Shown: one piece after another, positions 8,848 to 55,538 of the stretch
How the letters are laid out: every line of letters begins with the position of its first letter
Position numbering within the stretch: the first letter of the stretch is position 1
From: Chloroflexota bacterium
GTDB lineage: Bacteria > Chloroflexota > Dehalococcoidia > UBA2247 > RBG-13-53-26
Direction of reading: 5' to 3'
DNA: 64,000 bases
NCBI GenBank assembly: GCA_003551705.1
Contig: PUNJ01000020.1
Coordinates: 17,128 to 81,127 of the forward strand
The notes under the pieces: generated by a model
The model's input: the letters and a program-made list of their open reading frames with translations, nothing else
Database searches by the model: none
What the model was told of the DNA's origin: nothing
Program-made: the position numbers and the translations under genes

Positions 8848-8849
8848 TC

Positions 8850-9413: not shown

Positions 9414-9423
9414 GAAACGAGTC

Positions 9424-10458: not shown

Positions 10459-10585
10459 GCCGGGCACAAAGTCCAAGTTCCAAGATCGAAGGTGCTCAAC
10501 AGTGTCTCCGCGGTGTTATAGCGCCATTCTTGGTCTGGAATGGGAGCGGCAACATTGGGCCGGGCCCACCCTACAGCTATATAGG

Positions 10586-10613
10586 AAACCGGGCCCAGAA
10601 TCAGGCCCGGTTT
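10586..10613. terminator. bidirectional hairpin terminator between convergent genes (AAACCGGGCC-loop-GGCCCGGTTT)
   Basis: 10-bp stem flanked by A-tract on one side and T-tract on the other. Lies between the + strand dehydrogenase gene and the - strand dehydratase operon. Confidence 0.5.
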
Positions 10614-10673
10614 GGTCGATACCTTAATCCCGTCGACTAAAGAACCAAGCTAGCGTCCTGACAGGCGTCTCGC

Positions 10674-11996: not shown

Positions 11997-12006
11997 AATG
12001 CCTCCT

Positions 12007-13152: not shown

Positions 13153-13198
13153 ATGGTTGTCTCCCCTTCAGTATTTGGGCGGCCCAGGCAAGGATTGC

Positions 13199-16263: not shown

Positions 16264-16686
16264 ATGTGGGAGAGGGAAAAAATAACACAGCCGGCACCAG
16301 CCTCACCGTTGTTCTGGAGACTCAATGCTGATGTTTACCAACTCTTGGGCGCCAAGTGCCCTGACTGCAACCACATAACGTATCCTCGTCGCAAGATCTG
16401 TCCTTCTTGTGGTAGTTTCAAAGTTGAAGACTACCAGTTATCAAAGTCAGGTACTGTACATACTTTCTGCATTAACTGGACCCCGCCTCCCGGTCTGGAA
16501 CCACCCATCGTCAACGTGATTGTTGACCTCGACGGTGGCGGACGGTACCAGGGTCTGCTAACAGAGGTCGCCAACCCTGAAGAAGTCCAGATCGGCACCA
16601 GGGTTCAAATGGTCCTGCGCAAGGTAATGAAAGACCGGGGCCTCGACATCTACGGCTACAAGTTCAGACTGGAGAAGGAGGGCTAG
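16264..16686 (+). CDS. DUF35 OB-fold/zinc-ribbon protein (thiolase/HMGCS complex scaffold type)
   Basis: 140 aa. CPDC...CPSCGS rubredoxin-like zinc ribbon followed by an OB-fold region. Immediately upstream of a thiolase gene. Confidence 0.75.
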   Translation: MWEREKITQPAPASPLFWRLNADVYQLLGAKCPDCNHITYPRRKICPSCGSFKVEDYQLSKSGTVHTFCINWTPPPGLEPPIVNVIVDLDGGGRYQGLLTEVANPEEVQIGTRVQMVLRKVMKDRGLDIYGYKFRLEKEG

Positions 16687-16688: not shown

Positions 16689-17891
16689 ATGAGTATAAGA
16701 GGCAATGTTGCCGTAATCGGCGTAGGCATGATCCCCTTCGGGGAACTCTTTGAAAAGAGCTTCAATGACATGGCCCAGGAAGCTTTCATGAACTGCGTTA
16801 ATAACGTGGACAAGGGCTTTGATCCAAAGGATATCAAGGCAGCCTGGTTTGGACAGTGGAGCGGCGGCGGCATGATCGGCCAGGGAGTTCTGGCGGGCAC
16901 ATCCCTAGCCACTATACTGGGATTGCGCGATATCCCGATAACGAGAATCGAAAACGGTTGTCCCACCGGTAATGATACGTTTCGCAACGCGGTCATCGGT
17001 GTGGCGTCCGGCGCATATGATGTTTGTCTAGCCTTCGGTGCCGAGAAAATGAGGGACAAGCCGGGTGTCGAGTCGCTTGTAGCTGCCGGGGGCGGCGGCG
17101 GCGGCATACTCGGCCTGCATCCGTCCTGGATGCTCGGCATGGGCGGTCCCGTCTTACAGGCACTGTATGCTACCCGCCAGATGCACGAGTTGGGTTACAC
17201 TATGGAAGACTACGCCCGCGTGGCAGTCAAGAACCATCACAACGGTGTTGCCTGTCCGTATGCGGAATACCGGTTTGAAGTATCCATAGAGCGGGTATTG
17301 AATAGTCCTGTGGTATGCTGGCCTCTCCACTTGCTGGACTGCTGTCCGCAGACAGATGGAGCAGCCTGTGCCATTGTTTGCCGGGCCGATCTGGCCAAGA
17401 AGTACACTGACAAACCAGTGTATGTACTTGGCACCGCTACAGGCGTAGACTATCAGGACATGTGGGACAAACATAGTTTCATAGAGATGCTCCCTACCAT
17501 CAAGGCAGCCAAAGCCGCCTTGACCATGGCCGGCATCGCACCGAACGATATTGACCTGGCCGAGGTACACGACTGTTTCACCAACACCGAATTGATGAAC
17601 ATAGAAGATATCGGCTTCTGTAAGAAGGGTGAAGCGGCAGCGCTTCTCAAGGAGGGCTACTGGAACCGCGATGGCGCAAAGCCGATCAACCCCAGCGGAG
17701 GACTGAAGGCACACGGCCATCCGATCGCTGCCACCGGCCTGGGACAGATTTGTGAGAACTTCTGGCAGTTGCGGGAAGAAGTGGGCCAAGAAAGACAGGT
17801 CAAGCTGAAGAATGGTATCGCCCTCAGCCACAATGTGGGTGGCGGCGGCTTCGGCGTTTCCGCGATCAACATTCTTGGTCGTGAGCCCTAA
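16689..17891 (+). CDS. SCP2/archaeal-type thiolase (acetyl-CoA acetyltransferase family)
   Basis: 400 aa. Candidate nucleophile Cys in RIENGCPTGN. C-terminal GHPIAATG and NVGGGG thiolase signatures. GGAGG SD. Confidence 0.8.
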   Translation: MSIRGNVAVIGVGMIPFGELFEKSFNDMAQEAFMNCVNNVDKGFDPKDIKAAWFGQWSGGGMIGQGVLAGTSLATILGLRDIPITRIENGCPTGNDTFRNAVIGVASGAYDVCLAFGAEKMRDKPGVESLVAAGGGGGGILGLHPSWMLGMGGPVLQALYATRQMHELGYTMEDYARVAVKNHHNGVACPYAEYRFEVSIERVLNSPVVCWPLHLLDCCPQTDGAACAIVCRADLAKKYTDKPVYVLGTATGVDYQDMWDKHSFIEMLPTIKAAKAALTMAGIAPNDIDLAEVHDCFTNTELMNIEDIGFCKKGEAAALLKEGYWNRDGAKPINPSGGLKAHGHPIAATGLGQICENFWQLREEVGQERQVKLKNGIALSHNVGGGGFGVSAINILGREP

Positions 17892-17907
17892 TCAAGGTAA
17901 GGAGGCA

Positions 17908-18933
17908 ATGATGGCAGGAATAGTAGGTTACGGGGTATACGTTCCGCAATACAGGCTGAAACAGGCCGACGCCGCCATGCCCTGGGGTGGTTTTGGAATG
18001 GGTGAGAAAGCAGTGTGCGGCTGGGACGAGGACATAGTCAGCATGGCCGCTGAGGCTATGGAGAATGCCGTCAAGAGCGCGGGGATCAAGGCAAACACCA
18101 TCGATGCGCTCTTCCTAGGCACAGCCTCCACACCATATCTTGAGCAACATCTGTCGCCGATCCTTGCCCAGACACTGGGCATGGCGCCTCAGGTACAGTT
18201 GCTGGACTTCACAGGGTCGCTCAATTCGGTATCCAACGCCATGACCTCCTGTCTGGATGCTCTGGCAGCAAAGCGGATCAAGACTGGATTGGTCGTGGGC
18301 ACGGAAAACCGGGCAGCCGGCCCCGGCTCTGAAGGCGAAGTGAATTTCGGCGCAGCAGCCGCCGCCTTCGTAATCGGGAACTCTGATTCCGCTGCCGAAA
18401 TCGAAGGCTTTTCCACCTATCAAACAATGTTCTATGACAGATGGCGCGCTACCAAGGATTCCTGGGTATCCAATTGGTTCGATTACAGGTTTGCGCGTGA
18501 ATATGGCTACCAGAAACATGTCAGTGAGGCAACCGGAGATCTCATGACCAAGCTGGAGAAGAAACCTGACGATTTCACCAATGCAATTTTCTATCAAGCC
18601 GATGGTAGAATACCCGCCTTGGTGGCAAAGCACATTGGCATCAAAGCCGACAAGGTATTTCCTGACCTCACCCCTGCACTGGGTGATCTCGGCAGTGTTT
18701 CGGCTTACGTTTGCCTATCGGGTCTATTGGAGAACTCACAGGCCGGCCAGAGAATACTGCTGGGTACTTACGGTGCCGGCAGCGCCACGGCCTTCAGCAT
18801 ACTGGTAGGCGACAAGATCGAAGCGAAGAAGGGTCGCGCCAAGAACCTGCAGCAGTACGTTGAAAAGAAGTTATATGTCGACTACCCGGCGTACCTCAGG
18901 ATGATGGGAACCCTTTCAAGAGTCCCCTACTAG
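17908..18933 (+). CDS. HMG-CoA-synthase-like protein (partner of DUF35/thiolase)
   Basis: N-terminus AGIVGYGVYVPQYRL matches the archaeal HMGCS N-terminus. Start set at ATG with AAGGAGG SD (M33 of the listed ORF). Hairpin terminator downstream. Confidence 0.7.
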   Translation: MMAGIVGYGVYVPQYRLKQADAAMPWGGFGMGEKAVCGWDEDIVSMAAEAMENAVKSAGIKANTIDALFLGTASTPYLEQHLSPILAQTLGMAPQVQLLDFTGSLNSVSNAMTSCLDALAAKRIKTGLVVGTENRAAGPGSEGEVNFGAAAAAFVIGNSDSAAEIEGFSTYQTMFYDRWRATKDSWVSNWFDYRFAREYGYQKHVSEATGDLMTKLEKKPDDFTNAIFYQADGRIPALVAKHIGIKADKVFPDLTPALGDLGSVSAYVCLSGLLENSQAGQRILLGTYGAGSATAFSILVGDKIEAKKGRAKNLQQYVEKKLYVDYPAYLRMMGTLSRVPY

Positions 18934-19416: not shown

Positions 19417-20391
19417 TCAGCTACCCCGGACCTGTTTCAGCCATGCATCAATCAGGTTGTGATTGGTGAGAATCTGGCTGGCTGCTGAATAGGGGTCTAT
19501 CTCACCCGTCTCGACCCTTTCGAGATAGCGTGCAAGATCCTTGTCGTTTTCTATTTGGCTCACGATCTGACTCATGATCCTGTATTCAATAGTGCGAAGC
19601 AAGTCGAGCTTTCGTTGCCTTGACCTATTACGGTCCAAATGACCACCATCACCAAGAGCCTTCTCATGGGCCTTTATGTGCCGGTATAACTCCTCAATGC
19701 CCTTGTCATTTACCGCCTCAGTGGCAACAACAGGGACCTTCCACCAGGAATCAGGCCTCTGGCTCAACATGCCTTCCACTTCAGCCAGCATGTAATCAGC
19801 ACCCGGCCGGTCGGCCTTGTTGACCACGAATATGTCGGCGATTTCCATCAAGCCCGCCTTCATCGTCTGGATGCTGTCACCACCCTCAGGCACCAGCACA
19901 ACCACAGTAGTGTCAGCGGCCTCCATGATATCAATCTCGGTCTGGCCGACACCAACCGTTTCGACCAGGACGAAATCCTTACCCGCAGCGTCCAACAGTT
20001 TCACCACACCTGACGCCGTTCTGGGTAGACCTCCATGGCTGCCCCTCGTGGCCATGCTGCGAATGAAAACGCCCTCATCCAGATAATGCTGCTGCATCCT
20101 TATGCGGTCTCCCAGTATCGCACCACCAGAGAAGGGGCTCGTTGGATCCACAGCAATGATACCGACGTCCCTTTCATCCTGGCGCGCACTGCCAGCGAGT
20201 CTGCCAACCAGTGTACTTTTGCCTCCTCCCGGGGGGCCGGTTACTCCTACGGTGAAAGCCTTGCCTATGTGGGGATACACGGATTTCATTATGTCAGGCA
20301 CTTCCCGGCTGTCTCTTTCAACCAGCGTAATCAACCGTGCCAGGGCTTGCCTGTCACCCAGCAGCATTTTTTCTACCATCTCAGTAATCAT
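19417..20391 (-). CDS. meaB: methylmalonyl-CoA-mutase-associated G-protein chaperone MeaB/ArgK
   Basis: P-loop GPPGGGKST. MeaB-like length (324 aa) when started at the internal ATG preceded by GGAGG. Divergent from the mutase genes. Confidence 0.85.
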   Translation of the reverse strand: MITEMVEKMLLGDRQALARLITLVERDSREVPDIMKSVYPHIGKAFTVGVTGPPGGGKSTLVGRLAGSARQDERDVGIIAVDPTSPFSGGAILGDRIRMQQHYLDEGVFIRSMATRGSHGGLPRTASGVVKLLDAAGKDFVLVETVGVGQTEIDIMEAADTTVVVLVPEGGDSIQTMKAGLMEIADIFVVNKADRPGADYMLAEVEGMLSQRPDSWWKVPVVATEAVNDKGIEELYRHIKAHEKALGDGGHLDRNRSRQRKLDLLRTIEYRIMSQIVSQIENDKDLARYLERVETGEIDPYSAASQILTNHNLIDAWLKQVRGS

Positions 20392-20573
20392 AAAGACTCC
20401 TTCCGGATTTGCGCGCGCAGCATCTGGGGAACCATGCAGGGATAGGCGGCGTACAGGCTTTTGCAACACCTCACAACTATTTGTTATTATAGTAAACGTT
20501 CACGCACCCTTTCAAATCTGCGTGGCAAACTGTCAGCCTTGAGTCCGGTGATCCAACATAGCTAGGAGGAAGT

Positions 20574-22175
20574 ATGACCGCGAATAACGAGGACCAGATT
20601 AAGTCAGCATCGGGCATTCCCATCAAAGACCTATACATCCCAAATGATATCAAGGATATCGACTATGATAAGGAAATCGGCCTGCCCGGCCAACCACCAT
20701 TCACTCGTGGCGTGTACCAGACCATGTACCGCGGCCAGTTGTGGACCATACGCCGGCTGAGCGGTTTCAACACACCGGAGGACACTAACAACCTATACCG
20801 CGAAGAGTACGAACTGGGACAGACCGGTTTCTCCATAGCACCCGACATCTCCACAGCCTCTGGAATGGACCCCGATGATCCCAGGGTGGTGTCCGACGTA
20901 GGCCATGCCGGTGCTCCAATATACTCGCTTGAGGACATGGAGACGGTATTCGACGGCCTGCCCATCGAAAGGGTTTCCACCTTCCTGGCCGATCGAGTAG
21001 GCGGTCTGCTGACACCGGCCTATTTCATCATGGCCCAGAAGCGCGGCATACCGATGGACCAGGTACGCGGTACTACGGCTAACGACCTGTGCACCTGGAG
21101 TTCAATGGAGCTCGCCAACCAGCCCACTCCCCATACCTTTCTCCGGATGTCCGTGGACCTCATCGAGTGGTGTGCTGAGAACGCGCCAAGATGGTACCCC
21201 ATCTCCATGAACTCTTACAACCCCCGCGACAATGGGATCACCGCCGTCCAGGAGTTAGGCATGCTCATGGCCACGGTCATTCAGTATATTGAAGAAGCAA
21301 AGCGACGGGGCAGGGTACCACTTGACAAGTTTGTCAGGCGCTTCGCGTTTAACATGGCAGTCCATAACGATTTCTTCGAAGAGATATGCAAGTTGCGCGC
21401 CGCCCGCCGCATGCTGCTTAAGATCATCAGGGACCGCTACGGCATCGATGACCCGAAATGCGGCCAGCTCCGGGTCCATGTGCAGAGTTCCGGGTCCACC
21501 CACACCCACCAGGAACCCCTCAACAACCTCGTCCGCATAGCCTATCAGGTAATGGCCGGAGTCCTTGGTGGAGCCCAGTCGATACATGCCAACGGTTATG
21601 ACGAGGCGGTCTGCCTGCCCACCGATCAGTCCATGCTACTCTCTATCCGGACCGAGCAGATTGTCGCCCTCGAGACCAACGTTACCAACACCATCGATCC
21701 GCTGGGAGGTTCCTACTTCGTGGAATCCCTCACCAACGAAATCGAGGAGCGTGCCTGGGACTTCGTCAAGAAGATCGAGGAAGTCGGCGGCATGGCCCAG
21801 GCCATCAACACCGGTTGGATACACAGGGAGTACAAGGCTGCTATCATCGACTACGAGCGCAAGCTGCGGTCAGGAGAAATTAACGTCGTCGGCGTCAACA
21901 AGTTCCGGATGGAGAAGGAACCGCACAGCATACCTATTTTCAAGCCCGACCCGAAATCTGCAGACATTCTTGTCGAACGAATCAAGCGCCAGCGCGAGCA
22001 ACGGGACAACGCCAAAGTCACCAAGGCGCTGCAGAACCTGGAAGAAGTTGTCAGGAGCGAAGAAAATACTTTCCCTGCCATCATGGAAGCGGTCAAGGCC
22101 CAGGCTACCCCGGGTGAACTGGCAGCCATTCCGCTCAAAGTCTACGGTCCGTGGACCTATCCCATTGGAGTATAG
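20574..22175 (+). CDS. B12-dependent acyl-CoA mutase large (substrate-binding TIM-barrel) subunit, no B12 domain; copy 1
   Basis: 533 aa collinear with the methylmalonyl-CoA mutase catalytic domain (FTRGVYQTMY, WTIRRLSGF, PRVVSDVGHAG). AGGAGG SD. Confidence 0.85.
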   Translation: MTANNEDQIKSASGIPIKDLYIPNDIKDIDYDKEIGLPGQPPFTRGVYQTMYRGQLWTIRRLSGFNTPEDTNNLYREEYELGQTGFSIAPDISTASGMDPDDPRVVSDVGHAGAPIYSLEDMETVFDGLPIERVSTFLADRVGGLLTPAYFIMAQKRGIPMDQVRGTTANDLCTWSSMELANQPTPHTFLRMSVDLIEWCAENAPRWYPISMNSYNPRDNGITAVQELGMLMATVIQYIEEAKRRGRVPLDKFVRRFAFNMAVHNDFFEEICKLRAARRMLLKIIRDRYGIDDPKCGQLRVHVQSSGSTHTHQEPLNNLVRIAYQVMAGVLGGAQSIHANGYDEAVCLPTDQSMLLSIRTEQIVALETNVTNTIDPLGGSYFVESLTNEIEERAWDFVKKIEEVGGMAQAINTGWIHREYKAAIIDYERKLRSGEINVVGVNKFRMEKEPHSIPIFKPDPKSADILVERIKRQREQRDNAKVTKALQNLEEVVRSEENTFPAIMEAVKAQATPGELAAIPLKVYGPWTYPIGV

Positions 22176-22190
22176 AGAAGGAGTAATCGC

Positions 22191-22601
22191 ATGGACTCAA
22201 AGAACGTCAAGATATTAATGGCCAAACCCGGTCTGGAAGGGCACTGGCGCGGTCTGATTGCAGTCAGCAGCGCCTTCAGGGATGCAGGTTTCGAGGTCAT
22301 TTACGGCGGCAGTATGCGGCCAGCAGAGATCGCCACGACAGCCGCCCAAGAAGATGTGGATATTGTCGGACTGAGCATACTCTGTTCAAACTATATGCCA
22401 CTCACTTCCCAGACCATTGAACAACTCAAGGCCCACGGCAAGGGTGACGTCATGGTCCTGCTTGGCGGTATAATCTACCCCGACGACTTCACTGAACTTC
22501 AAAAGATGGGAGTAAGCGGCATCTTCATACCGGGAACACCACTCGAAGACATCGTCAAATTCGTAAATGACAGGATACCTGAACTCAAGAAAGTTGCATA
22601 G
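22191..22601 (+). CDS. B12-binding small subunit of split acyl-CoA mutase; copy 1
   Basis: 136 aa. KILMAKPGLEGHWRG cobalamin-binding loop (ExHxxG variant of DxHxxG). Rossmann-like remainder. GGAG SD. Confidence 0.85.
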   Translation: MDSKNVKILMAKPGLEGHWRGLIAVSSAFRDAGFEVIYGGSMRPAEIATTAAQEDVDIVGLSILCSNYMPLTSQTIEQLKAHGKGDVMVLLGGIIYPDDFTELQKMGVSGIFIPGTPLEDIVKFVNDRIPELKKVA

Positions 22602-22653
22602 CCCTTGGGCAATAAGTAGGTCCAGAGTTTGGTAACTCTCAAGGAGCGTGAAT

Positions 22654-24249
22654 ATGGCAAGCGAAGATAAGGTGTTTTCACTATCTGGGATCCCAATCAA
22701 GGACCTCTACACGCCGGACGATGTGAAGACCATTGACTATGACCGAGACCTTGGCTTGCCGGGACACCCCCCCTATACACGAGGCGTCTACGCCACGATG
22801 TATCGCGGCCAGCTTTGGACGATACGCCGTTTGAGCGGTTTCAATACACCTGAAGAGACTAACAAGCTTTACCGGGAGGAATACGAACTGGGGCAGACCG
22901 GGCTTTCGGTAGCCCCAGACATCTCTACCGTCGTCGGCATGGATGCGGATGATCCAAGAGTTTCCGCAGACATCGGACATGCCGGCGTACCCATGAGTTC
23001 CATTGAGGACGTCGAAGCCACCTTCAACGGCATCCCCATTGAGAATGTGTCCACCTATCTGGCAGACAGGTGTGGGGCAGTTACCACGGCCATGTATTTC
23101 GTCATGGCGGAGCGGCGCGGCCTTGATCTCAAGGGGCTCCGTGGTACAACCGCCAATGACATGTTGAGCTTCAGCGTGCCCAGCCTCGTGAACCAGACGC
23201 CTCCGCAAGCATATCTCCGCTATGCCGTCGATTTCATCGAATGGTGTTGCGAGCACGCTCCTAGATGGAACCCCGTATCCTTTGACTCATACAACTCCAG
23301 GGATTGCGGGCTCGACGCTGTACAAGAGCTTGGCATGTTGCTGGCCACTGCCATTCAGTACATGGAGGAAGCGAAGAGGCGAGGCAGGGTACCCCTGGAC
23401 AAGTTCGTCCGGCGAGTCTCCTTCGATACCGGTTTGCACAACGACTTTTTTGAGGAAATCGCCAAACTCCGGGCCGCCCGACGTATGTGGTACAAGATCG
23501 TCCGTGACCGCTATGGCATAACGGACCCCAAATGCGCTCTGTTTCGCGTTCACTGCCAGAGTTCGGGCTCGACTCATACAACTCAGGAACCGTTGAATAA
23601 CCTCATTCGCATAGCCTATCAGGTAATGGCAGGAGCACTGGGTGGTGCCCAGTCCATCCATGCCAATGGCTATGACGAAGGCATCTGTCTGCCAACCGAG
23701 CAATCGATGCTGCTCTCGATTCGCACAGAGCAAATAGCGGCCCTGGAAGCAAACATTGGAAACACCATCGACCCTCTTGGGGGCTCCTACTACGTAGAAT
23801 CCCTGACCAACGAACTTGAGGAACGCTCCTGGCAATATGTCAAGAAGATAGAAGACATGGGAGGGATGGCCGAGGCCATGAGTTCCGGTTGGCTATACAA
23901 GGAGTACAGGGATGCCATGATCGAGCACGAGAGGAAGGTGGCCACGGGTGAACTTCCCATAGTCGGCGTGAATAGGTTCCGGCTGGAAAAAGAGCCCTAT
24001 GAGGTCCCCATCTTTAGATGGGACCCGGAAGCTCCGTACAAACAGATTGAGAAACTCAAGGCATTCAAGCAGAAACGAGATAAGGACAAGTTGACGGCAT
24101 CCCTGGAGAACCTTGAAGCTGTTACCCGCCGGGGCGAAAACGTGTATCCGGCCGTAATGGACGCGATCAGGTGCAATGCCACTCTTGGCGAGATATCGGA
24201 TGTGCAATTGAAAGTTTACGGCCTCTGGCGCCGGCCGCTGGCAATCTAA
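22654..24249 (+). CDS. B12-dependent acyl-CoA mutase large subunit; copy 2 (paralogue of 20574..22175)
   Basis: Same architecture and motifs as copy 1 (YTRGVYATMY...). Start set at the ATG 7 nt after an AAGGAG SD. Confidence 0.85.
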   Translation: MASEDKVFSLSGIPIKDLYTPDDVKTIDYDRDLGLPGHPPYTRGVYATMYRGQLWTIRRLSGFNTPEETNKLYREEYELGQTGLSVAPDISTVVGMDADDPRVSADIGHAGVPMSSIEDVEATFNGIPIENVSTYLADRCGAVTTAMYFVMAERRGLDLKGLRGTTANDMLSFSVPSLVNQTPPQAYLRYAVDFIEWCCEHAPRWNPVSFDSYNSRDCGLDAVQELGMLLATAIQYMEEAKRRGRVPLDKFVRRVSFDTGLHNDFFEEIAKLRAARRMWYKIVRDRYGITDPKCALFRVHCQSSGSTHTTQEPLNNLIRIAYQVMAGALGGAQSIHANGYDEGICLPTEQSMLLSIRTEQIAALEANIGNTIDPLGGSYYVESLTNELEERSWQYVKKIEDMGGMAEAMSSGWLYKEYRDAMIEHERKVATGELPIVGVNRFRLEKEPYEVPIFRWDPEAPYKQIEKLKAFKQKRDKDKLTASLENLEAVTRRGENVYPAVMDAIRCNATLGEISDVQLKVYGLWRRPLAI

Positions 24250-24264
24250 AAAGGGGTGAAATTC

Positions 24265-24672
24265 ATGGTCAAAGACAGGGTGAAGATATTGATGGCAAAG
24301 CCCGGCCTCGAGGGACACTGGAGGGGCATGACCATAGTCAGTAGCGCCCTGCGGGATGCTGGATATGAGGTAATCTACGGGGGAAACATGCTGCCGCCGG
24401 AGATCGGCCAGACCGCAGCCCAGGAGGACGTGGACATGGTAGGGCTGAGCATCCTCTCGTCAAATTACATGAGACTGGTAAGTGAAACTCTGGAGGAACT
24501 CCGCAAGAACAACAAGGACGACGTAACAGTATTGCTGGGCGGCATCATCTGGGAATCGGACTTCGCGGCTCTCAAACATATGGGGATTGCCGGAATATTC
24601 ACACCGGGTACGCCCTTGCAGGACATCGTCGCCTTTGTCAATACAAAGACCGCAGCGCAGCCCAGCCGGTGA
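24265..24672 (+). CDS. B12-binding small subunit; copy 2
   Basis: KILMAKPGLEGHWRG identical to the copy-1 loop. Start at the ATG preceded by AAAAAGGGG. Confidence 0.85.
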   Translation: MVKDRVKILMAKPGLEGHWRGMTIVSSALRDAGYEVIYGGNMLPPEIGQTAAQEDVDMVGLSILSSNYMRLVSETLEELRKNNKDDVTVLLGGIIWESDFAALKHMGIAGIFTPGTPLQDIVAFVNTKTAAQPSR

Positions 24673-24734
24673 GAATGCGTGCACTGCATTGAGTATACCA
24701 ATCCCTGCACGGAGCCTGGTCGTGACTGCGAGAT

Positions 24735-24764
24735 TTGACACTCGAAAAAGGCCTGCCATATACT
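24735..24764 (+). promoter_or_regulatory. sigma70-like promoter (TTGACA-18-TATACT) within a conserved AGATTTGACACTC element
   Basis: Same 13-nt element and same spacing as the promoter at 16071. Lies about 320 nt upstream of the cdhB-like gene. Confidence 0.4.
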
Positions 24765-25083
24765 GTAGTTGCCTTGGATGGCCTAGGGTCAGTGAGGAAA
24801 ACGCTTAGTGCCGATTACGCCTAAAGAACAAAGCCGCATTGTGGGCGTCGCCCACAGCAATAGATGGCGATCTGAGATCGCAGACCGAACCAACCGGGCA
24901 GATTCCCTAGACCAGCACCATACGGTTTGCCCATTATCCACATCATCTCTTACTCCGTTGTCGCGATTGATGCCTGGCATCAATTCAACGGTGCATTTAG
25001 CAATGCGATTACACCTTTCTTGATGAGGGCCTTTCCATAGGTCCAAGATTGATCCCGACAGCCAAGTGAAGGAGGGAATTACG

Positions 25084-25548
25084 ATGAGTATCAAGGATCC
25101 AGCAGGGTTAGCCCAATATCTTCGAAGCGGCAAGCGAGTGCTGATCATGACCGGAGCGCTCTGTGATGAAATCAATTTCGATGGCAAGAGCCTGTTGGAC
25201 TATGCTGCCGACATTGCCAAGAGGACCAAAGCTCCAGTAGCTGCCACAGGCAATACGGTCAACGGCCTCCGAGAGCGAGGCGTGGAGACACACAAGTCCT
25301 GGGCGGCTGAGATCGTAAATTTCATGAAATATGATTGGCACAACCCGCTCATGGCTGACAAACCCGAGGTGCTGCTTTTGATAGGATATAGCCCGACTAT
25401 GGCAGCGAACTTAGCCTCTTCCGTAAAGGATGCGGAAACCGTCGCCTTGGGCGGCAGCTACATCGAGGAAGCCACGTATTCTCTTCCCAGTGTCAAGTCT
25501 TTCTCTGAGTGGCAGCAAGAGTTAACGGAGTTAGTCAAGGCACTATAG
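25084..25548 (+). CDS. CdhB-like protein (epsilon subunit of archaeal-type CO dehydrogenase/acetyl-CoA synthase)
   Basis: 154 aa. Rossmann-like pattern KRVLIMTG...APVAATGN...EVLLLIGY and a C-terminal ELVKAL, resembling ACDS epsilon subunits. Start at ATG after GAAGGAGGG. Confidence 0.5.
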   Translation: MSIKDPAGLAQYLRSGKRVLIMTGALCDEINFDGKSLLDYAADIAKRTKAPVAATGNTVNGLRERGVETHKSWAAEIVNFMKYDWHNPLMADKPEVLLLIGYSPTMAANLASSVKDAETVALGGSYIEEATYSLPSVKSFSEWQQELTELVKAL

Positions 25549-25554
25549 CAGGAA

Positions 25555-26124
25555 ATGGATAACAAGTCCGAGACGCAGAAGAGCAGGATCAGCGAAGGTG
25601 AATTCCGCCATTACGTTTTCGAGCGGCAGGAATTGCTGGATGAAACGCGACGCTTTCTGGAACAGGCGGGATATGAATGGAAGCCTGTAGACCATGTGGG
25701 ATTTGTCCAGCCCGATTTCCGAACCAAGCGTAAGGCAGAAGGGCGCCGTTTCGAAATAGCAGGCCTGCTCCGGGAGAGCATGGATGAAGCCGTTGAGGCA
25801 CTCATCAAGCTATCTGCGATACGAGCTGTAAATGCAAACATCGATTGCGTGCTGGTTCTGCCGCCCATAAATGAGTATGTGCTCATCGAATTCCTCATGG
25901 ATGAACGAGGGCGCTGGTACTTCGGGATGAAAGATGCCAAGATATCGATGTGGTTTGTCAATCCGGATAACAGGACCACAATGTGTGTCATTGGCGGTCC
26001 AAGCGATAGAGAATTCTTAAAACACTTCTTCATGAGCCAGGCCAATTTCGATGAGTACATGTCCATGCGCGCACTACACCTCATCCAAGAAAGACTTATG
26101 GCTGAGGAAGAAGAGGACGACTAG
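25555..26124 (+). CDS. hypothetical protein (no recognisable motif; acidic C-terminus)
   Basis: 189-aa ORF in operon context between the cdhB-like and SDR genes. Confidence 0.5.
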   Translation: MDNKSETQKSRISEGEFRHYVFERQELLDETRRFLEQAGYEWKPVDHVGFVQPDFRTKRKAEGRRFEIAGLLRESMDEAVEALIKLSAIRAVNANIDCVLVLPPINEYVLIEFLMDERGRWYFGMKDAKISMWFVNPDNRTTMCVIGGPSDREFLKHFFMSQANFDEYMSMRALHLIQERLMAEEEEDD

Positions 26125-26177
26125 TTTGAGGGGGGACCCAATTAATCTTACCCTCACAAATAACAAGGAGGTAAGTG

Positions 26178-27077
26178 ATGGGCAAACTTGATGCTAAGAA
26201 CGCAGTAGTTACCGGTGGCGGCCGGGGCATTGGCCGAGCAGTAGCCTTGGAATTGGCCAAGAATGGCGCCAAAGTAATAGTTTCCGACTTGGGCGGATCG
26301 AGGAGCGGCGAAGGTGCGGATGCTTCTGCAGCGGAGGAAGTCGTTGCCGAGATCAAACAGGCCGGGGGCACGGCAATGGCCAACCATGAGTCTGTTACCG
26401 ATTTCGTGGCGGCTGAAAGAATAGTCAAGACCTGCGTAGATAGTTTCGGCAGCATAGATATACTGGTCAACTGCGCCGGCATTCTGCGCGACCGCATGTC
26501 CTGGAACATGTCCGAAGAGGAATGGGATGCTGTTATCGCCGTACACCTCAAAGGTATGTTCAACATGATCCGGCATGCTGGCCGATTTATGAGGGAACAG
26601 AAGTGGGGGCGCATCGTCAGCACCACCTCTGATGCCTGGAGAGGCAGTCCAGGACAGCCGAACTACAGTGCCGCCAAGGGGGGCATAGTCAGCCTCACTC
26701 GCACACTGGCCGGTGAACTCGGCAAATACAATGTCACAGCAAACGCCATCGCACCGTTTGCAGCCACCAGGATGACCATGGACGAGGAGGTTATCGCCAG
26801 GTTCAAGAAGTACTATGAATCGGGCATGATGACAGAGGACCAGTATGATGAACTGGTCAATATGCCCGGTCCGGAGTACCTGGCTCCCGTGGTTGCGTAC
26901 CTTTGCACCGAAGAAGCCGCCGCCATCAACGGCAAGGTTGTCGGATGCGGTGGCGGACGGGTCTCTCTGTATTCTGACCCGGTCGAAATTCGCGGTCTTT
27001 TCAGGGACCATAGACAATTCGGTGCCTGGACAGTTGAAGAACTGATCAAGCTCGTGCCGAAGACTCTTCTTACATAG
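26178..27077 (+). CDS. MFE-2-type (R)-specific 3-hydroxyacyl-CoA dehydrogenase (SDR family)
   Basis: Near-collinear with the dehydrogenase domain of peroxisomal multifunctional enzyme 2: VTGGGRGIGR, SDLGG, VNCAGILRDR, GRIVSTTS, catalytic NYSAAK. AAGGAGG SD. Confidence 0.8.
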   Translation: MGKLDAKNAVVTGGGRGIGRAVALELAKNGAKVIVSDLGGSRSGEGADASAAEEVVAEIKQAGGTAMANHESVTDFVAAERIVKTCVDSFGSIDILVNCAGILRDRMSWNMSEEEWDAVIAVHLKGMFNMIRHAGRFMREQKWGRIVSTTSDAWRGSPGQPNYSAAKGGIVSLTRTLAGELGKYNVTANAIAPFAATRMTMDEEVIARFKKYYESGMMTEDQYDELVNMPGPEYLAPVVAYLCTEEAAAINGKVVGCGGGRVSLYSDPVEIRGLFRDHRQFGAWTVEELIKLVPKTLLT

Positions 27078-27276
27078 TAAGGAAGGTAAATAACCAAATA
27101 CGCTGTACAGCTCCCTGGTCAGAGGTTGACCATTCTACCGAGGAGGTAGAATAATGGTTTAGTTTTACCAGGTCACTCACGCCGGAGACGTGAGCCTGGC
27201 CCGATCAAGGTGAATCAGGGCATGTGACCTAGTGGCCAGCAGTGAAGAAGAGGAGCATATCTTAAAGGAGGTCAAT

Positions 27277-28641
27277 GTGAGCGTCGGAGAAGATCCAGAA
27301 AAGAATGTTCCGCCCGGAAGAGAATTTCAATTGCCCACAGACCCCGATTATCTCTGGGACGGGTTAAAGGACATAGGACTGGGCATAAGATGGGTAGCCG
27401 AAGTTAAGAAGGCCGACATGCAAATCGAGCTTTCCGGACCCAAGTGGGAGTACAAGAGCTACACCATCATGGAAGTGATTGAAGAGCCTGGCATAGTAAG
27501 GGACGGCATAGTAACACTGGTTGGTCCCGATCTGCACGAGGTGGAACCCGGTACTTCGGTGCCCTCTGCCTGGGACATCAAGGTCTACGGCCCTGGCATC
27601 GGCCAGCGGCATCGCGAGTATCTGGAACGGCAAATGGCCATGGCTCTGCACGGAATTGAGGGATACATGGCCTTTGGTTCTTTCCAGGCACCCTGGATGA
27701 GGATCAGCAAGGCTGTGGCGGGGCGGCTTACGTTCGCCAAGCTGTGCCAGATAATCCATGCTTATATCAAGACCGTGGTCCCTCAAGTGGAAGCCATGGA
27801 GTTCCGCTGGATAATCGGCGCCCCCGAAATCGGCGGCCTCGACCTGATAGAGCCGTTATATCGCAGGGGTATTCAAAGGTTGAAGGCCCAGGAACAGTCG
27901 GTTGCCCTTGAAGACGAAGACGTCGACCTGTTCTACGGGTGTACAATCTGCAAATCACTGGCCCCCAACCACGTATGTGCCATTACCCCCAGCCAGATAC
28001 CCTACTGCGGCATTCTGTCCTACAACGGCGCCCAGGTTACGGTCGAGCTGGACCCCGAGGGCTACATATTCCCGATGCCAAAGGGCGAGTGCAAGAACTT
28101 CCTTCAGGGCAGCTACTCCGGCGTTGATGCAGCAGTGTATGAAAGATCAAACCATCAGGTAAAGAGGGTTAATATCTTCAGCGCTATCAGGTACCCCACC
28201 ACCAACTGCGGATGCTTTGAGGGCGCTGCATTCTATATACCTGAAGTAGACGGTCTCGGCGTTGCCATCCGTCGCTATATCGGTGTGACACCTCTCGGCA
28301 TAAAGTTCTCCCGTTTGGCAGGTACCATATCAGGCGGCTCGCAGAACCATGGCTACAAAGGCGTGTCGATGCGCTCAATGCAAAGCAAGACTTTCCTCAA
28401 GGGAGACGGGGGCTGGAACAGAATCGTCTGGATGCCCGCTGACCTGAAAGAAGAAGTAGCCGAATACATTCCCGAAGAGATCTACGACAAAATAGCCACC
28501 GAGCAGGACACCATCGACCCGGTCGAACTCAAGGAGTTCCTGAAGAAGAAAGGTCACCCCGTAGTTGAGAAATTCTGGAAAAATGGTGAACCTCAATCGT
28601 TGAATGTACCTCTCCCAGGAGGGGAGTGGGCCGACGAATAA
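27277..28641 (+). CDS. cdhC: acetyl-CoA synthase (A-cluster) subunit, archaeal CdhC type; copy 1
   Basis: A-cluster ligand pattern C-x2-C-x8-C-x9-C followed exactly 67 residues later by the Ni-binding C-G-C (TNCGCFEG). About 455 aa, as in archaeal beta subunits lacking the bacterial AcsB N-domain. GTG start 5 nt after AAAGGAGG. Confidence 0.8.
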   Translation: MSVGEDPEKNVPPGREFQLPTDPDYLWDGLKDIGLGIRWVAEVKKADMQIELSGPKWEYKSYTIMEVIEEPGIVRDGIVTLVGPDLHEVEPGTSVPSAWDIKVYGPGIGQRHREYLERQMAMALHGIEGYMAFGSFQAPWMRISKAVAGRLTFAKLCQIIHAYIKTVVPQVEAMEFRWIIGAPEIGGLDLIEPLYRRGIQRLKAQEQSVALEDEDVDLFYGCTICKSLAPNHVCAITPSQIPYCGILSYNGAQVTVELDPEGYIFPMPKGECKNFLQGSYSGVDAAVYERSNHQVKRVNIFSAIRYPTTNCGCFEGAAFYIPEVDGLGVAIRRYIGVTPLGIKFSRLAGTISGGSQNHGYKGVSMRSMQSKTFLKGDGGWNRIVWMPADLKEEVAEYIPEEIYDKIATEQDTIDPVELKEFLKKKGHPVVEKFWKNGEPQSLNVPLPGGEWADE

Positions 28642-28656
28642 ATTGGGAGGTCGAAA

Positions 28657-28872
28657 ATGGGAGATAACCTTTGCGGAGTATGTCAGAAGAAGGAAACAGA
28701 AGCTACATGCAAAGTCTGCGGCGTGGCACTGTGCGCTGAATGTGTCCGTGAAGTCAGCGTAGAAAATCCAGGCCAACGGGTGCTTGGTGTGCTGACCAGT
28801 CCTCTCAAGTCAGGCACGAAGAAACAGAAGGTCTGTGCGACCTGTATGAAGGAAGTCGATTTCGTCGATTAG
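28657..28872 (+). CDS. 4xCxxC zinc-ribbon miniprotein; copy 1
   Basis: 71 aa with CxxC pairs at residues 6/9, 18/21, 26/29, 60/63. GGGAGG SD. Conserved paralogue at 32907..33128 in the same relative position. Confidence 0.65.
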   Translation: MGDNLCGVCQKKETEATCKVCGVALCAECVREVSVENPGQRVLGVLTSPLKSGTKKQKVCATCMKEVDFVD

Positions 28873-28955
28873 GTGCTTCCGCTTGCTGCTGAAAGACTTC
28901 CGTTCGTATGCGTTAACGCTTGGGCTAAGTATCGATAAGTCGGAGGATAAGAGCT

Positions 28956-31445
28956 GTGAAAGATAATAACAGAATTGCTCACGTCGGGTCCCTGGAAGTC
29001 AACATAGGCGACGTAGTTCGCGACCCCAGGGGGCACGAAGACGAAATCGTTGAAATACTGGAGAACGATTTTGTTGAAGGTCGACATAGCAACTTCGGTG
29101 GATGGATTACCCTCCTGCCGGATGCCATTGATCTGGCGGAACTCGATTATTCATACCTTAACAAATACCCGCCTCTCTATTCAGAGAGCGAGAGCACTTG
29201 CCGGGACTGCAGTCTGGGAGATTGCGATCTTAGCCAGCGTGCGGGAAAATGCGGACTCAGCGCCGAATCCTTCCAGGGGAGACTGAGCCTGCGAAAGGCC
29301 TGCCGCGGTTGCATGACTCAAATTACTGCAACCCGTCAGTTGCTTAATTACGCCCTCAAACGCTGGCCGGAGGATACCCCAGTCTCCATGGGCGAGATCC
29401 TTAGCATATCCGATAGTGCCCCAGCTATCACCGTTCTCTCCGGCATCTTGATCAAGACCATAAAGGACCTCAACAGGGCCCAGTCCTATGCGGAGCAGCA
29501 GCTAGCCAGGCTGTTCCAGGCCAGTTTCAACGGGACCGGCACGGCGGTTGAATTCGAGAGCATGGTCTTGCACACCGGCTCGGTACTATTGCTGACCATG
29601 GGCGTAGCAGAGATGCTGAAGATCTCCTGCTACGGATTCATCAGTGCAGCAAACGAGGAGTTGGAAGTCATCGACCAGTTCCCAGCCCCCAGCGTGAAAG
29701 GCGGATGGGCTTCCGTCGACAACAGCAAACCGTCGATTGCATTCGAAGGAGATGACTTTCTTCCCGCCTGGTGCGCACTGGACTACATGAAACAGCAAGA
29801 CCTGCTCGGTCAGATAGAGATCTGCGGCCTGGGCTCAGCCGGCGATGACATCGCCAGGTTCCATGACCAGTGCCGCGTTCTGGGTCCAGCCGTGAGAGCC
29901 ACCAAGGCCATCCGAAACGGTGTATTCAACGTAGTCGTCCTCAGCCCGGGCTGTACTCCGCAAGATCTGCTCGGTGAGGTCGAGCGAGCCGGCAGCAAGG
30001 CCATATGGGTTGGCAGCAACGGCATCGGCAATTTGCGCGACAGAACGGACGAGACCGTCGATAGCATAGTTGCCGCGCTGGCTGCCGGAGAGAAGGCCGT
30101 CTGGGTCCGCGATGTGGAAAAGGCAGGCGAGGTGGCTGTCAAGGCTGCACAGACCATCGCCAAATCCAAGTCCAGCCTGACGTCCGAAGATGACGCTGTC
30201 AAGGCTGCCGCAAGCCACGACAAGAACTGTGACCTCTGTACCCTGGTCTGTCCTCTTAATCTTCCTGTTGCCAAGGCCGTAAAGGGACTGGAAACAGGCG
30301 ATTGGACAGCGATGCTTGAAGTGGAGAAAGCGTGCAACTTCTGCGGCAAGTGTGAAGATGCGTGCCCCAGCAAGTTGGAATTACGTGACATCATTGTCGC
30401 CGCCGAAAGAAGACAGGCTGACAAAGACAAATTCGTTATGCGACCGGGTCGCGGTCCAATTTCGATCACCGAATTGCTGCAGTCAGCGTTTGCCGTGGGT
30501 TGGGGCAGCATTCCAGCCATGGTTACCCTATTCGGGTGCGGTGACGCTCCGCAGGAAGAGATAGCCTGGATGGCTGATGAATTGTTGAAAGGTGGATGCA
30601 TGGTCTTCACTGCAGGGTGTGGCGCCTCCGATATAGCGCACTCCTACAGCGAAATGAAGAAGAAATACGTATTCGAGGAATACGCAGCCACCTGCGCAGC
30701 CAGAAACCTGGTGAACTGCGGCAGTTGCTCGGCCATGTGTCATGCACTGCCCATGTACCTGATGTTGAGGCCCTCCGGAGGGATTCCGCTGTACGGCGGA
30801 ATTCCACCCCTGGGTGATTCCATCAATCTTGGCGGCGCCCAGTCATTAATAATATGGGGCTCCATGTCCGACCGCATGTACGCCATGGCAGCGGCCTGGG
30901 CACGACTCGGTTCCACCGTTATCGTGGGTCCCTCATCATCGCTCAAGTGGCCTCGCTCCCTGGTGGGCAACAGGTATGATCGCAGCCGCTGGTGGGTACA
31001 TCACGGTGAGACGGCAAAGAAGCGCGAAACTGAGCCCGTCCCCGAACACCTCATCATGCCGGTTGAGACAAAAGAGGAAGCGCTGACCATGCTGGCGCGG
31101 TCGGTCCTGACCGTGAAGGACTATCGTGAAAGCCGCGCCACGCACCTGGAAGTCTTGATTGATTACTATGACCGCTTCTATAATGAGTTGCCGGCTGACT
31201 GGCCGTTGCTGGTAAGGTCTGACTTCGAACTGCCACCCCGCTACAGAAGATACATGGTCAGATTGCTGGGCGAGGAATATGGTTGGGAAACCGAAGGAAT
31301 GCGGATCAAGCAGGCCAAGCACCGGGACGGCAAGCTCATGACACTGTCAGAGTTTGCGGCCAATTACGGCATGGAGCAAGGCATCTACAGTACCCGGCTG
31401 AAGAGCCAGTTGCCCCTACGCCTCAGAGACAAGGTAGAGGAATAG
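28956..31445 (+). CDS. cdhA: CO dehydrogenase catalytic subunit-like protein, archaeal CdhA type with ferredoxin-like insertion; copy 1
   Basis: 829 aa. N-terminal CxxCxxxxC...C Fe-S motif. Inserted 2x[4Fe-4S] ferredoxin segment (NCDLCTLVCP / CNFCGKCEDACP) as in archaeal alpha subunits. C-terminal Cys cluster (GCG..., NCGSC). Sits in a cdhC/cooC context. Confidence 0.6.
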   Translation: MKDNNRIAHVGSLEVNIGDVVRDPRGHEDEIVEILENDFVEGRHSNFGGWITLLPDAIDLAELDYSYLNKYPPLYSESESTCRDCSLGDCDLSQRAGKCGLSAESFQGRLSLRKACRGCMTQITATRQLLNYALKRWPEDTPVSMGEILSISDSAPAITVLSGILIKTIKDLNRAQSYAEQQLARLFQASFNGTGTAVEFESMVLHTGSVLLLTMGVAEMLKISCYGFISAANEELEVIDQFPAPSVKGGWASVDNSKPSIAFEGDDFLPAWCALDYMKQQDLLGQIEICGLGSAGDDIARFHDQCRVLGPAVRATKAIRNGVFNVVVLSPGCTPQDLLGEVERAGSKAIWVGSNGIGNLRDRTDETVDSIVAALAAGEKAVWVRDVEKAGEVAVKAAQTIAKSKSSLTSEDDAVKAAASHDKNCDLCTLVCPLNLPVAKAVKGLETGDWTAMLEVEKACNFCGKCEDACPSKLELRDIIVAAERRQADKDKFVMRPGRGPISITELLQSAFAVGWGSIPAMVTLFGCGDAPQEEIAWMADELLKGGCMVFTAGCGASDIAHSYSEMKKKYVFEEYAATCAARNLVNCGSCSAMCHALPMYLMLRPSGGIPLYGGIPPLGDSINLGGAQSLIIWGSMSDRMYAMAAAWARLGSTVIVGPSSSLKWPRSLVGNRYDRSRWWVHHGETAKKRETEPVPEHLIMPVETKEEALTMLARSVLTVKDYRESRATHLEVLIDYYDRFYNELPADWPLLVRSDFELPPRYRRYMVRLLGEEYGWETEGMRIKQAKHRDGKLMTLSEFAANYGMEQGIYSTRLKSQLPLRLRDKVEE

Positions 31446-31517
31446 ATTTCGGCCCGATTGTTACGTCGATAAAGTAATCGTTCTGAAACCCGGTTACAAC
31501 GTGGGAAGGGGGAAAGC

Positions 31518-32885: not shown

Positions 32886-32906
32886 TTCCTGATCGGGGGT
32901 TGAATC

Positions 32907-33128
32907 ATGTCGGAGAATCTTTGTGGAGTTTGCCAGAAGATGGCCGCTCAATGGACCTGCCAGGAGTGCAAAGTGGCACTATGCGAGCAGTGTGTAAAGG
33001 AAGTGCGCATAGAGTCCACCAGACCAGGTCAGAGGATGATGGGAAGGGTTACGAGCCCCATGAAGTCAGGGGTGAAGAAGATCAAGGTCTGTGACAAGTG
33101 CTTCAGGGAAAAGGAGTTTCTGGGATAG
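32907..33128 (+). CDS. 4xCxxC zinc-ribbon miniprotein; copy 2
   Basis: 73 aa. Cys positions conserved with the 28657..28872 miniprotein. Confidence 0.65.
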   Translation: MSENLCGVCQKMAAQWTCQECKVALCEQCVKEVRIESTRPGQRMMGRVTSPMKSGVKKIKVCDKCFREKEFLG

Positions 33129-33141
33129 CAGCCGAGGAGGC

Positions 33142-35628: not shown

Positions 35629-35631
35629 GGC

Positions 35632-37743: not shown

Positions 37744-37749
37744 ATTCGT

Positions 37750-40717: not shown

Positions 40718-40719
40718 AA

Positions 40720-48750: not shown

Positions 48751-48765
48751 TTCGATCCTCCTTTA

Positions 48766-54308: not shown

Positions 54309-54385
54309 CAAAAAAACCGCTAGACCCGCCCCAGTTCGCACCCATTCAGCAGCATAGGGGGGAACCCCTCTTGAAGGAGGAGTTA

Positions 54386-55534: not shown

Positions 55535-55538
55535 AATA

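Follow-up and report, generated by a model that had tools for sequence, protein, structure and literature searches.

Organisation of the mutase locus

The 64,000-nucleotide stretch analysed here, referred to below as the window, comes from contig PUNJ01000020.1 of a Chloroflexota bacterium (assembly GCA_003551705.1) and carries a tandem pair of split, B12-dependent acyl-CoA mutases. Four co-oriented open reading frames (ORFs) encode a large, substrate-binding subunit and a small, B12-binding subunit (L1 and S1) followed by a second couple of the same kind (L2 and S2). A gene for MeaB, the G-protein chaperone of B12 mutases, diverges from L1, and the locus reads meaB (minus strand), L1, S1, L2, S2 over positions 19417-24672 (Table 1). 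The intergenic distances L1-S1, S1-L2 and L2-S2 are 15, 46 and 6 bp. L1 and L2 share 65% identity over 533 residues in a gap-free alignment and S1 and S2 share 68%. An earlier note on this DNA, made from the sequence alone, had described a tandem pair of split mutases with MeaB nearby, and both the layout and the family matches bear this out, the chaperone gene scoring above its TIGR00750 cutoff.

Both large subunits contain the substrate-binding TIM-barrel domain of the MM_CoA_mutase type, as identified with PF01642, TIGR00641 (501 and 531 bits, cutoff 304) and Foldseek. Public records label them "methylmalonyl-CoA mutase". Neither reaches any NCBIfam equivalog cutoff: they score 428 and 450 bits with the methylmalonyl-CoA mutase (MCM) equivalog NF006944 (cutoff 876) and 170 and 185 bits with the IcmF equivalog NF045497 (cutoff 1500). 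In the small subunits the motif D-x-H-x-x-G reads E-G-H-W-R-G; the cobalt-ligand His and the Gly are kept and the change of Asp to Glu is conservative.

Promoter-like hexamers are present on both strands of the meaB-L1 spacer, and a near-consensus site (TTGACA-18-TATACT, 24735-24764) lies inside the gap after S2, all of these being consensus matches only. The presence of such sites before L1 and after S2 suggests that L1-S1-L2-S2 form one transcription unit. The gap itself is 393 bp of non-coding DNA 3' of S2 (24673-25065) with no Rfam match. An Rfam scan of the whole window returned no cobalamin riboswitch and no other family, and the window contains no tRNAs.

Table 1. Positions of the mutase genes, selected pocket codons and neighbouring genes in the window.
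Feature	Position	Strand	Remarks
DUF35	16264-16686	+	Pfam
Thiolase	16689-17891	+	Pfam; best solved match archaeal thiolase/HMGCS complex 6esq, 1.6e-77
HMG-CoA-synthase-like	17812-18933	+	Pfam; 6esq 2.4e-46
meaB, G-protein chaperone of B12 mutases	19417-20469	-	divergent from L1; TIGR00750 333 bits (cutoff 240.75), PF03308 4.5e-83
L1, mutase large subunit 1	20574-22175	+	533 aa; PF01642 E = 2e-156; closest solved relative HcmA 4r3u, 5e-107
S1, B12-binding small subunit 1	22191-22601	+	136 aa; TIGR00640 3e-40, PF02310; motif GLEGHWRG
L2, mutase large subunit 2	22648-24249	+	533 aa; PF01642 E = 3e-163
S2, B12-binding small subunit 2	24256-24672	+	138 aa; TIGR00640 1.5e-38, PF02310; motif GLEGHWRG
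Leu62 codon (= MutB Tyr89)	20757-20759 (L1); 22831-22833 (L2)	+	
Arg141 codon (= MutB Asn168)	20994-20996 (L1); 23068-23070 (L2)	+	
Asn216 codon (= MutB His244)	21219-21221 (L1); 23293-23295 (L2)	+	
His310 codon (= MutB Leu336)	21501-21503 (L1); 23575-23577 (L2)	+	
Archaeal-type CODH/ACS module	25066-41751	mixed	SDR inside span
CdhB-like	25066-25548	+	3cf4_G 4e-6; TIGR00315 7e-9
Unknown protein	25555-26124	+	189 aa
SDR, (3R)-hydroxyacyl-CoA dehydrogenase (MFE-2) type	26175-27077	+	2et6 1e-86; kept in L001, L002, L085, L095
CdhC	27232-28641	+	intact A-cluster Cys motifs
Small zinc-finger protein	28657-28872	+	
CdhA	28956-31445	+	
Second CdhC	31518-32885	+	58% identical to first
Second CdhA	33091-35628	+	53% identical to first
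Fe-S protein	35632-36186	-	ACDS gamma subunit N-terminal domain only
FwdD-like	36119-36517	-	
FwdB-like	36514-37743	-	TIGR03129 7e-80, below cutoff
VWA/chelatase-like	37750-39975	-	
CooC-like	39953-40717	-	
MoxR-type AAA	40720-41751	-	
HMG, 3-hydroxy-3-methylglutaryl; HMGCS, HMG-CoA synthase; CODH/ACS, carbon monoxide dehydrogenase/acetyl-CoA synthase; SDR, short-chain dehydrogenase/reductase; Fe-S, iron-sulfur; ACDS, acetyl-CoA decarbonylase/synthase. L001, L002, L085 and L095 are related loci described in the text.

Composition of the active site

Positions follow the numbering that the literature uses for P. shermanii MutB, with the replacing residues in the numbering of L1 and L2. Residues were mapped with HMMER to PDB chains and with two MAFFT alignments of 125 and 213 sequences, and all of these agree. 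The gap-free alignment to MutB that the earlier note had claimed was confirmed for the core, whereas over the whole length HMMER and MAFFT each insert a few gaps. The motifs that it quoted, GTTANDLCTWSSME and GTTANDMLSFSVPS, were found in the two large subunits. Because there are zero indels between the GT..ND anchor and the R[IM] anchor that follows it, Arg207 of MutB corresponds to Glu179 in L1 and to Ser179 in L2, and the HMMER and MAFFT alignments concur in this. As the note had also stated, the Gln that isobutyryl-CoA mutase (ICM) has at this position is absent too. Its statement that Tyr89 is retained was a misassignment: the Tyr of RGVYQTMY/RGVYATMY on which it relied is Tyr48, aligning to MutB Tyr75 in "HGPYATMY", whereas Tyr89 in "WTIRQYAGF" aligns to "WTIRRLSGF" and is replaced by Leu62 in both copies.

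The substitutions also extend beyond those noticed before, to His244, Gln197, Phe117, Phe287, Asn168 and Leu336, and include the variant B12 motif of the small subunits. In addition to Leu62, both copies carry Gln197 to Ala169, Phe117 to Pro90, His244 to Asn216, Thr166 to Ala139, Asn168 to Arg141, Trp334 to Ser308 and Leu336 to His310. Two further changes are copy-specific, namely Ser164 to Phe137 (L1) or Tyr137 (L2) and Phe287 to Asn260 (L1) or Asp260 (L2). The L1 pocket is composed of L62, A89, P90, F137, A139, R141, A169, E179, Y215, N216, N260, Q304, H310, N340 and E344, and that of L2 is the same save for Y137, S179 and D260. The polar set accordingly comprises Arg141, Asn216 and His310 in both, together with Glu179 and Asn260 in L1 and Ser179 and Asp260 in L2. 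At positions 89/116/117/197/207/244/336 the signature is LAPAENH in L1 and LAPASNH in L2, as compared with YAFQRHL in MCM, FAFQQHL in ICM and (I/V)DFQQHL in 2-hydroxyisobutyryl-CoA mutase (HCM). By these residues the pocket is neither of the MCM nor of the ICM type, as the note had proposed, nor of the HCM type. The CoA-contact residues (Y75, T85, R87, S114, T195, R283 and H328) and the cofactor-side residues (Y243, Q330, N366 and E370) are intact in both copies.

The "methylmalonyl-CoA mutase" annotation would fit ordinary MCM or ICM isozymes whose odd residues are products of misalignment, an explanation that we find scarcely credible. The three independent alignments agree with one another. 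The same alignments sort other loci of at most 44% identity cleanly into YAFQRH (MCM), FAFQQH (ICM), (I/V)DFQQH (HCM) and an I-I-F-Q-V-Q group, which validates the alignment, and the equivalog scores given above fall far under the MCM and IcmF cutoffs.

In the Hcm of Bacillus massiliosenegalensis, the residues about 5 Å from the acyl group are I95, V122, V172, H174, Y252 and F296 (PMC11599936, Supplementary Fig. 6 source data). Judging from residue spacing, these labels map to MutB positions 89, 116, 166, 168, 243 and 287, and positions 168 and 287 would thus plausibly belong to the first shell. Position 168 is an invariant Asn in MCM, ICM and HCM and an Arg or Lys in 65 of 69 close relatives of the pair. 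With a cationic residue at this putative first-shell site, the loss of Arg207 is not proof of a cation-free pocket, and the inference that carboxylate binding has been lost with Arg207 is unsafe.

L1 was modelled with AlphaFold2 on an alignment of 63 sequences (pLDDT 84, pTM 0.88). Foldseek matched the model to HcmA (PDB 4r3u) with a TM score of 0.93, to the MCMs of human, P. shermanii and M. tuberculosis with 0.88-0.92 and to IcmF with 0.83-0.87. In this model all of the changed residues are localised at, or just past, the C-terminal ends of barrel strands (residues 85-88, 135-138, 166-168, 210-213, 257-263, 301-305 and 336-338), and these strand ends form the active-site face in this mutase family.

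Conservation within a Dehalococcoidia clade

In a collection of 5.8 billion proteins, the 120 nearest ones show 51-100% identity. Those with a named source come from Chloroflexota/Dehalococcoidia metagenome-assembled genomes (MAGs), from a "Methanothrix" bin and from a single Thermodesulfobacteriota MAG, and in all 120 His is missing from position 244. When one genome was scanned for each species, three close loci (64-82% identity) were identified, all from Chloroflexota/Dehalococcoidia, and five at 48-51%, all from Dehalococcoidia; a metagenome scan added just one or two further close loci. In a midpoint-rooted neighbour-joining tree, the clade without His244 is separate from the MCM, ICM and HCM groups. 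Based on these sequence comparisons, we assign the pair to an uncharacterised Chloroflexota/Dehalococcoidia clade outside the three groups. A distinct mutase group of nine loci (L013, L017, L018, L022, L026, L031, L037, L038 and L042), with hosts among Actinomycetota ("Geothermincola" and "Solincola"), Syntrophales and others, shows (I/V)-(I/V)-F-Q-(V/A) at positions 89/116/117/197/207 and Gln replacing His244.

The close relatives fall into three sister orthologue groups according to residue 207, which is Asp or Glu in the first (n = 26, including L1), Ser or Ala in the second (n = 20, including L2) and Asn in the third (n = 23); the copy-1-type and copy-2-type orthologues are thus sister groups. 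All three have in common L89, A116, P117, A166, R/K168, A197, N244 and H336. Position 244 is Asn in 69 of the 69 close relatives, and the CoA-contact and adenosyl/cobalamin residues are invariant across them. Positions 244 and 336 change together: wherever His244 is kept (72 of 72 sequences) the combination is His/Leu, and within the clade it is Asn/His (n = 103) or Pro/His (n = 16).

For a wider census, 1.84 billion representatives clustered at 50% identity were scanned with HMMER, and 1,816 members of the mutase family were found at a threshold of E ≤ 1e-30. The top representative is just 49% identical, which marks the clade as a narrow lineage. Among the 141 nearest full-length representatives, whose alignment is noisier than the focused ones, position 244 is His in 62, Asn in 25 and Asp in 13, the MCM triad Tyr/Arg/His occurs in only 38, and Glu370 is found in 137; His336 was seen in none of the 141. 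By these counts, non-canonical pockets are common in the uncharacterised diversity of the family, most of whose pocket diversity appears uncharacterised, and His336 is specific to this clade. Because such pockets are common in metagenomic diversity, the pair is only moderately surprising.

Purifying selection on both copies is strong. In comparisons with orthologues the nonsynonymous divergence (dN) is 0.11-0.17 and the synonymous divergence (dS) is saturated, which puts dN/dS at about 0.07 or less for each. This bears on whether the proteins might be catalytically dead or have been repurposed as B12-binding proteins, as the replacement of Tyr89, Arg207 and His244, all functionally important in MCM, could suggest. 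We regard this as very improbable, given the strict retention of the adenosyl, cobalamin and CoA contacts in 69 close relatives, the retained dedicated MeaB chaperone and the low dN/dS. The replaced positions are moreover conserved within each orthologue group, a pattern of altered specificity and not of decay.

Copy-1 and copy-2 types stand in tandem in the independent contigs L001, L002 (= L092) and L085 (= L093), and L095 is near-identical to L002. Both large and both small subunits could form one hetero-oligomer that acts on a single substrate, with one chain mainly structural or regulatory, as in P. shermanii MutA/MutB, whose beta chain is a paralogue that has diverged. The retention of the Asp/Glu207 and Ser/Ala207 pairing in three independent related contigs and the very short intergenic gaps would fit this arrangement. 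It nevertheless seems unlikely, since every cofactor and CoA residue is present in both large subunits, each of these comes with a separate small subunit that carries the cobalt-ligand His, and purifying selection is equally strong on both. Furthermore, L003 and L081, which have the related Asn207 and Ala207 types, contain a single pair of large and small subunits. The earlier note had suggested two novel specificities partly on the premise of a retained Tyr89. That premise is false, whereas distinct, clade-conserved pockets do lie side by side. The branched, hydroxylated or tertiary-carbon acyl-CoAs that the note gave as examples are conjectural. As each pocket type is kept in its own orthologue group and the types recur next to each other, two distinct specificities are a reasonable inference from the sequences.

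Comparison with characterised mutases

HcmAB of Aquincola tertiaricarbonis is the best match to the pair, with 35-37% identity in HcmA. It shares the split into large and small subunits and the MeaB-type chaperone, and it has a small aliphatic residue at the Tyr89 site (Ile in HCM, Leu here). The two differ in that the hydroxyl-binding Asp117 of HCM is Ala89 here, its Gln208 is Glu179 (L1) or Ser179 (L2), the Gln197 site is Ala and its His245 is Asn. The pair further shows Phe to Pro at position 117, Phe to Asn or Asp at 287, Asn to Arg at 168 and Leu to His at 336, and its gene context contains no 2-hydroxyisobutyrate (2-HIBA)-CoA ligase.

MCM enzymes (P. shermanii MutB, human MMUT and the archaeal split MCM) resemble the pair in fold, in the CoA-binding residues, in Y243, Q330, N366 and E370, in His-on B12 binding and in the MeaB/MMAA chaperone. 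They differ in the carboxylate-binding Tyr89 and Arg207 (Leu and Glu/Ser here), in His244 (Asn) and in Gln197 (Ala), and the identity is 34-37%. ICM and IcmF (PDB 4xc6) have the family and the cofactor chemistry in common with the pair, and the Arg207 carboxylate clamp is absent in both; however, the Phe89/Gln207 signature and His244 are missing here and the pocket is markedly more polar. IcmF is also a weaker match than HCM or MCM (E = 8e-40). Ethylmalonyl-CoA mutase (ECM) retains the Tyr and Arg that are missing from both copies here.

The RcmAB-type 2-hydroxyisobutyryl-CoA mutases of Kyrpidia tusciae, B. massiliosenegalensis and Desulfococcus biacutus likewise combine a split mutase with a G-protein chaperone. 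Under the spacing-based mapping of the B. massiliosenegalensis pocket, the six first-shell residues correspond to L62, A89, A139, R141, Y215 and N260 or D260, and only the Tyr is common to both. Because the defining residues of each family were examined and others were found in their place, we classify the proteins by sequence as members of the acyl-CoA mutase superfamily but not of the MCM, ICM or HcmA-type families. The superfamily trait His244 is absent here, yet it is not universal, as the census of representatives indicates.

Conserved gene neighbourhood

The order of genes around the pair is kept at 60-89% protein identity in L001, L002 and L085. Its first half consists of DUF35, thiolase and HMG-CoA-synthase-like genes, meaB on the minus strand, and L1, S1, L2 and S2; its second half consists of CdhB-like, the 189-aa unknown protein and the SDR, then CdhC, the zinc-finger protein and CdhA, and a second CdhC, which in this window is followed by a second CdhA. 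The position of meaB is kept in L001, L002, L085 and L095. The DUF35/thiolase/HMGCS-like trio adjoins the mutases in L002, L085 and L095 and also a 51% identical mutase in L005, a locus with three family-III CoA-transferase genes. PhlABC proteins are also among the matches of the thiolase/HMGCS-like pair.

A cluster of mutase, MeaB and SDR operates in the ketone catabolism of sulfate reducers; the pathway of Desulfococcus biacutus and Desulfosarcina cetonica handles acetone through pentanones, and along with it 2-hydroxyglutaryl-CoA-dehydratase-like proteins are induced (PMC7888143). The SDR clustered with the mutase in both organisms is a 3-hydroxyacyl-CoA dehydrogenase (PMC7888143, PMC7176365). 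By analogy with HCM and RCM, the pair might convert 2-hydroxy-2-methylacyl-CoAs to and from (R)-3-hydroxyacyl-CoAs in an anaerobic ketone or tertiary-alcohol pathway such as that of D. biacutus, with two copies for two chain lengths or two enantiomers. HCM is the best match in sequence and fold, the mutases have a (3R)-hydroxyacyl-CoA dehydrogenase-type SDR and a thiolase as conserved neighbours, MeaB, mutase and SDR make up the core of the sulfate-reducer cluster, and the window holds two 2-hydroxyacyl-CoA-dehydratase D-component (HGD-D) pairs that recall the co-induced proteins; Glu/Asp207 of copy 1 could, moreover, bind a hydroxyl like Asp117 in HCM. We still consider this role improbable, because the HCM signature (Ile90, Asp117, Gln208 and His) is absent and domain scans of the window found neither an acetolactate-synthase-like thiamine diphosphate (ThDP) enzyme nor a 2-HIBA-CoA ligase. 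At most one of six first-shell residues is common to the pair and the B. massiliosenegalensis Hcm, and HCM is barely closer than MCM (37% vs 34-37% identity).

The genes downstream of S2 belong to an archaeal-type CODH/ACS module; cdh genes are often scattered in archaeal genomes. The module was seen in the window, where it is duplicated, and in L081, L085, L087, L088 and L089, and it is common to Chloroflexota, Syntrophales and an Alkanophagales archaeon. It always includes a 175-189-aa unknown protein, FwdB-like, FwdD-like and Fe-S proteins, and CooC-like, MoxR-type and VWA/chelatase-like genes accompany it. No corrinoid gamma or delta subunit was seen within any of these loci. In L081 a lone Ala207-type mutase lies near orthologues of the second CdhC/CdhA pair, and in L089 the module adjoins a thiolase and a DUF35 gene. 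The link between mutases and CODH/ACS is recurrent in Chloroflexota but not obligatory. An obligatory partnership by 1:1 co-duplication, which we had considered, is weakened by L087, L088 and L089, where the module stands without mutases. We also rejected the ORFs starting at 25066 and 25555 as mutase accessories, since both accompany CODH/ACS in mutase-free loci and the former is CdhB-like.

Proposed function of the pair

We moderately favour the explanation that the locus encodes two separate, active adenosylcobalamin-dependent acyl-CoA mutases, which have new specificities related to each other and supply a route to acetyl-CoA. Each mutase would be composed of a 533-aa TIM-barrel substrate subunit and its own B12 subunit of about 137 aa, with the divergently encoded MeaB serving both, and L1 and L2 would be paralogues from the uncharacterised Chloroflexota/Dehalococcoidia clade. 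The radical-generating half of the active site appears unchanged, and the substrate half appears rebuilt and more polar. Because residues 244 and 336 swap together across the clade, we hypothesise that the thioester-polarising His has moved from 244 to 336; the cationic residue may similarly have moved from 207 to 168. The two enzymes differ mainly at 207, which is acidic in L1 and Ser in L2, and at 287, and on this basis each is expected to move the CoA-thioester group by a 1,2-shift, the two acting on related acyl-CoAs. The substrates may be polar, that is, hydroxy-, amino- or carboxy-substituted acyl-CoAs. As the pocket differs from every characterised type compared (MCM, ICM and HCM), the pair probably acts on substrates outside these types. 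From the conserved neighbours we infer a product that is, or becomes, a (3R)-hydroxyacyl-CoA, which would pass through the dehydrogenase and thiolytic cleavage to acetyl-CoA and on to CODH/ACS. HMG-CoA was rejected as a substrate on chemical grounds, since C3 of this molecule has no hydrogen that could trade places with the migrating thioester.

Several points weigh against this explanation. Loss of His244 strongly lowers the activity of MCM in studies of H244 mutants, and this residue is Asn here; an H244A mutant MCM structure is represented by PDB 1e1c. The idea that His and Arg have moved leans on the co-variation within the clade, for which a single ancestral event might account, and on a residue mapping taken from the labels of another paper. 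The neighbour-joining tree was built from a set without ECM, pivalyl-CoA mutase (PCM), RCM and IaaGH-type sequences. The CODH/ACS module occurs without mutases in L087, in L088 (Syntrophales) and in L089 (the Alkanophagales archaeon), which makes its link to the mutases facultative. In L094 (7-6182), a Glu207-type large subunit 72% identical to L1 has no adjacent B12 subunit; its neighbours are two amine-oxidase/phytoene-desaturase-like flavoproteins before it and a family-III CoA-transferase after it.

A more far-reaching proposal, for which we see little likelihood at present, is that the mutase pair constitutes one arm of an undescribed anaerobic carbon pathway of Chloroflexota, with the shifts of His from 244 to 336 and of the clamp from 207 to 168 amounting to a new mechanistic variant. 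The other parts of such a pathway would be the (3R)-hydroxyacyl-CoA dehydrogenase, the thiolase/HMGCS-like/DUF35 complex and the CODH/ACS module (alpha, beta and epsilon subunits with FwdB- and FwdD-like proteins). One possibility is that the C1 module supplies a CO or formyl equivalent to make 2-hydroxy-2-alkylacyl-CoAs from ketones, which the mutases would then linearise.

To our knowledge, few specificities of acyl-CoA mutases have been characterised, namely methylmalonyl, isobutyryl, ethylmalonyl, 2-hydroxyisobutyryl and pivalyl, and each newly found one has opened a pathway or an engineering route. A lactyl-CoA mutase has been evolved from the HCM scaffold, no natural one being known (PMC11599936). 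The locus described here offers two closely related natural candidates for new rearrangements, with a heavily rebuilt polar pocket and a conserved catabolic context, from uncultured subsurface Chloroflexota. The pair could also be used to test directly whether another barrel strand can supply the "essential" His244.

Further genes in the window and related loci

More distant mutase paralogues without His244 are found in L083/L084, L086 and L090, where they form swarms, with as many as three large subunits in 20 kb; several lack an adjacent B12 subunit. Their neighbours are acyl-CoA dehydrogenases, Peripla_BP_6 solute-binding proteins, DUF6125 proteins and 2,4-dienoyl-CoA-reductase-like flavoproteins. 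These swarms suggest a lineage-specific radiation of mutases for diverse organic acids.

Four other regions of the window (6971-14413, 47545-50016, 54371-56846 and 60550-61761) encode the two HGD-D pairs, four family-III CoA-transferases, a D-2-hydroxyacid dehydrogenase, a three-subunit 2-oxoacid:ferredoxin oxidoreductase and a PaaK-like CoA ligase. This gene set looks like a reductive pathway that leads from 2-oxoacids by way of 2-hydroxyacyl-CoAs to enoyl-CoAs, and no BcrAD/BadFG-type activator ATPase was found among the window ORFs scanned. The set is not kept beside the mutases in related loci. Just past the CODH/ACS maturation genes, positions 42902-44833 encode a 643-aa fusion of acetyl-CoA hydrolase/transferase domains with a C-terminal GNAT acetyltransferase domain.

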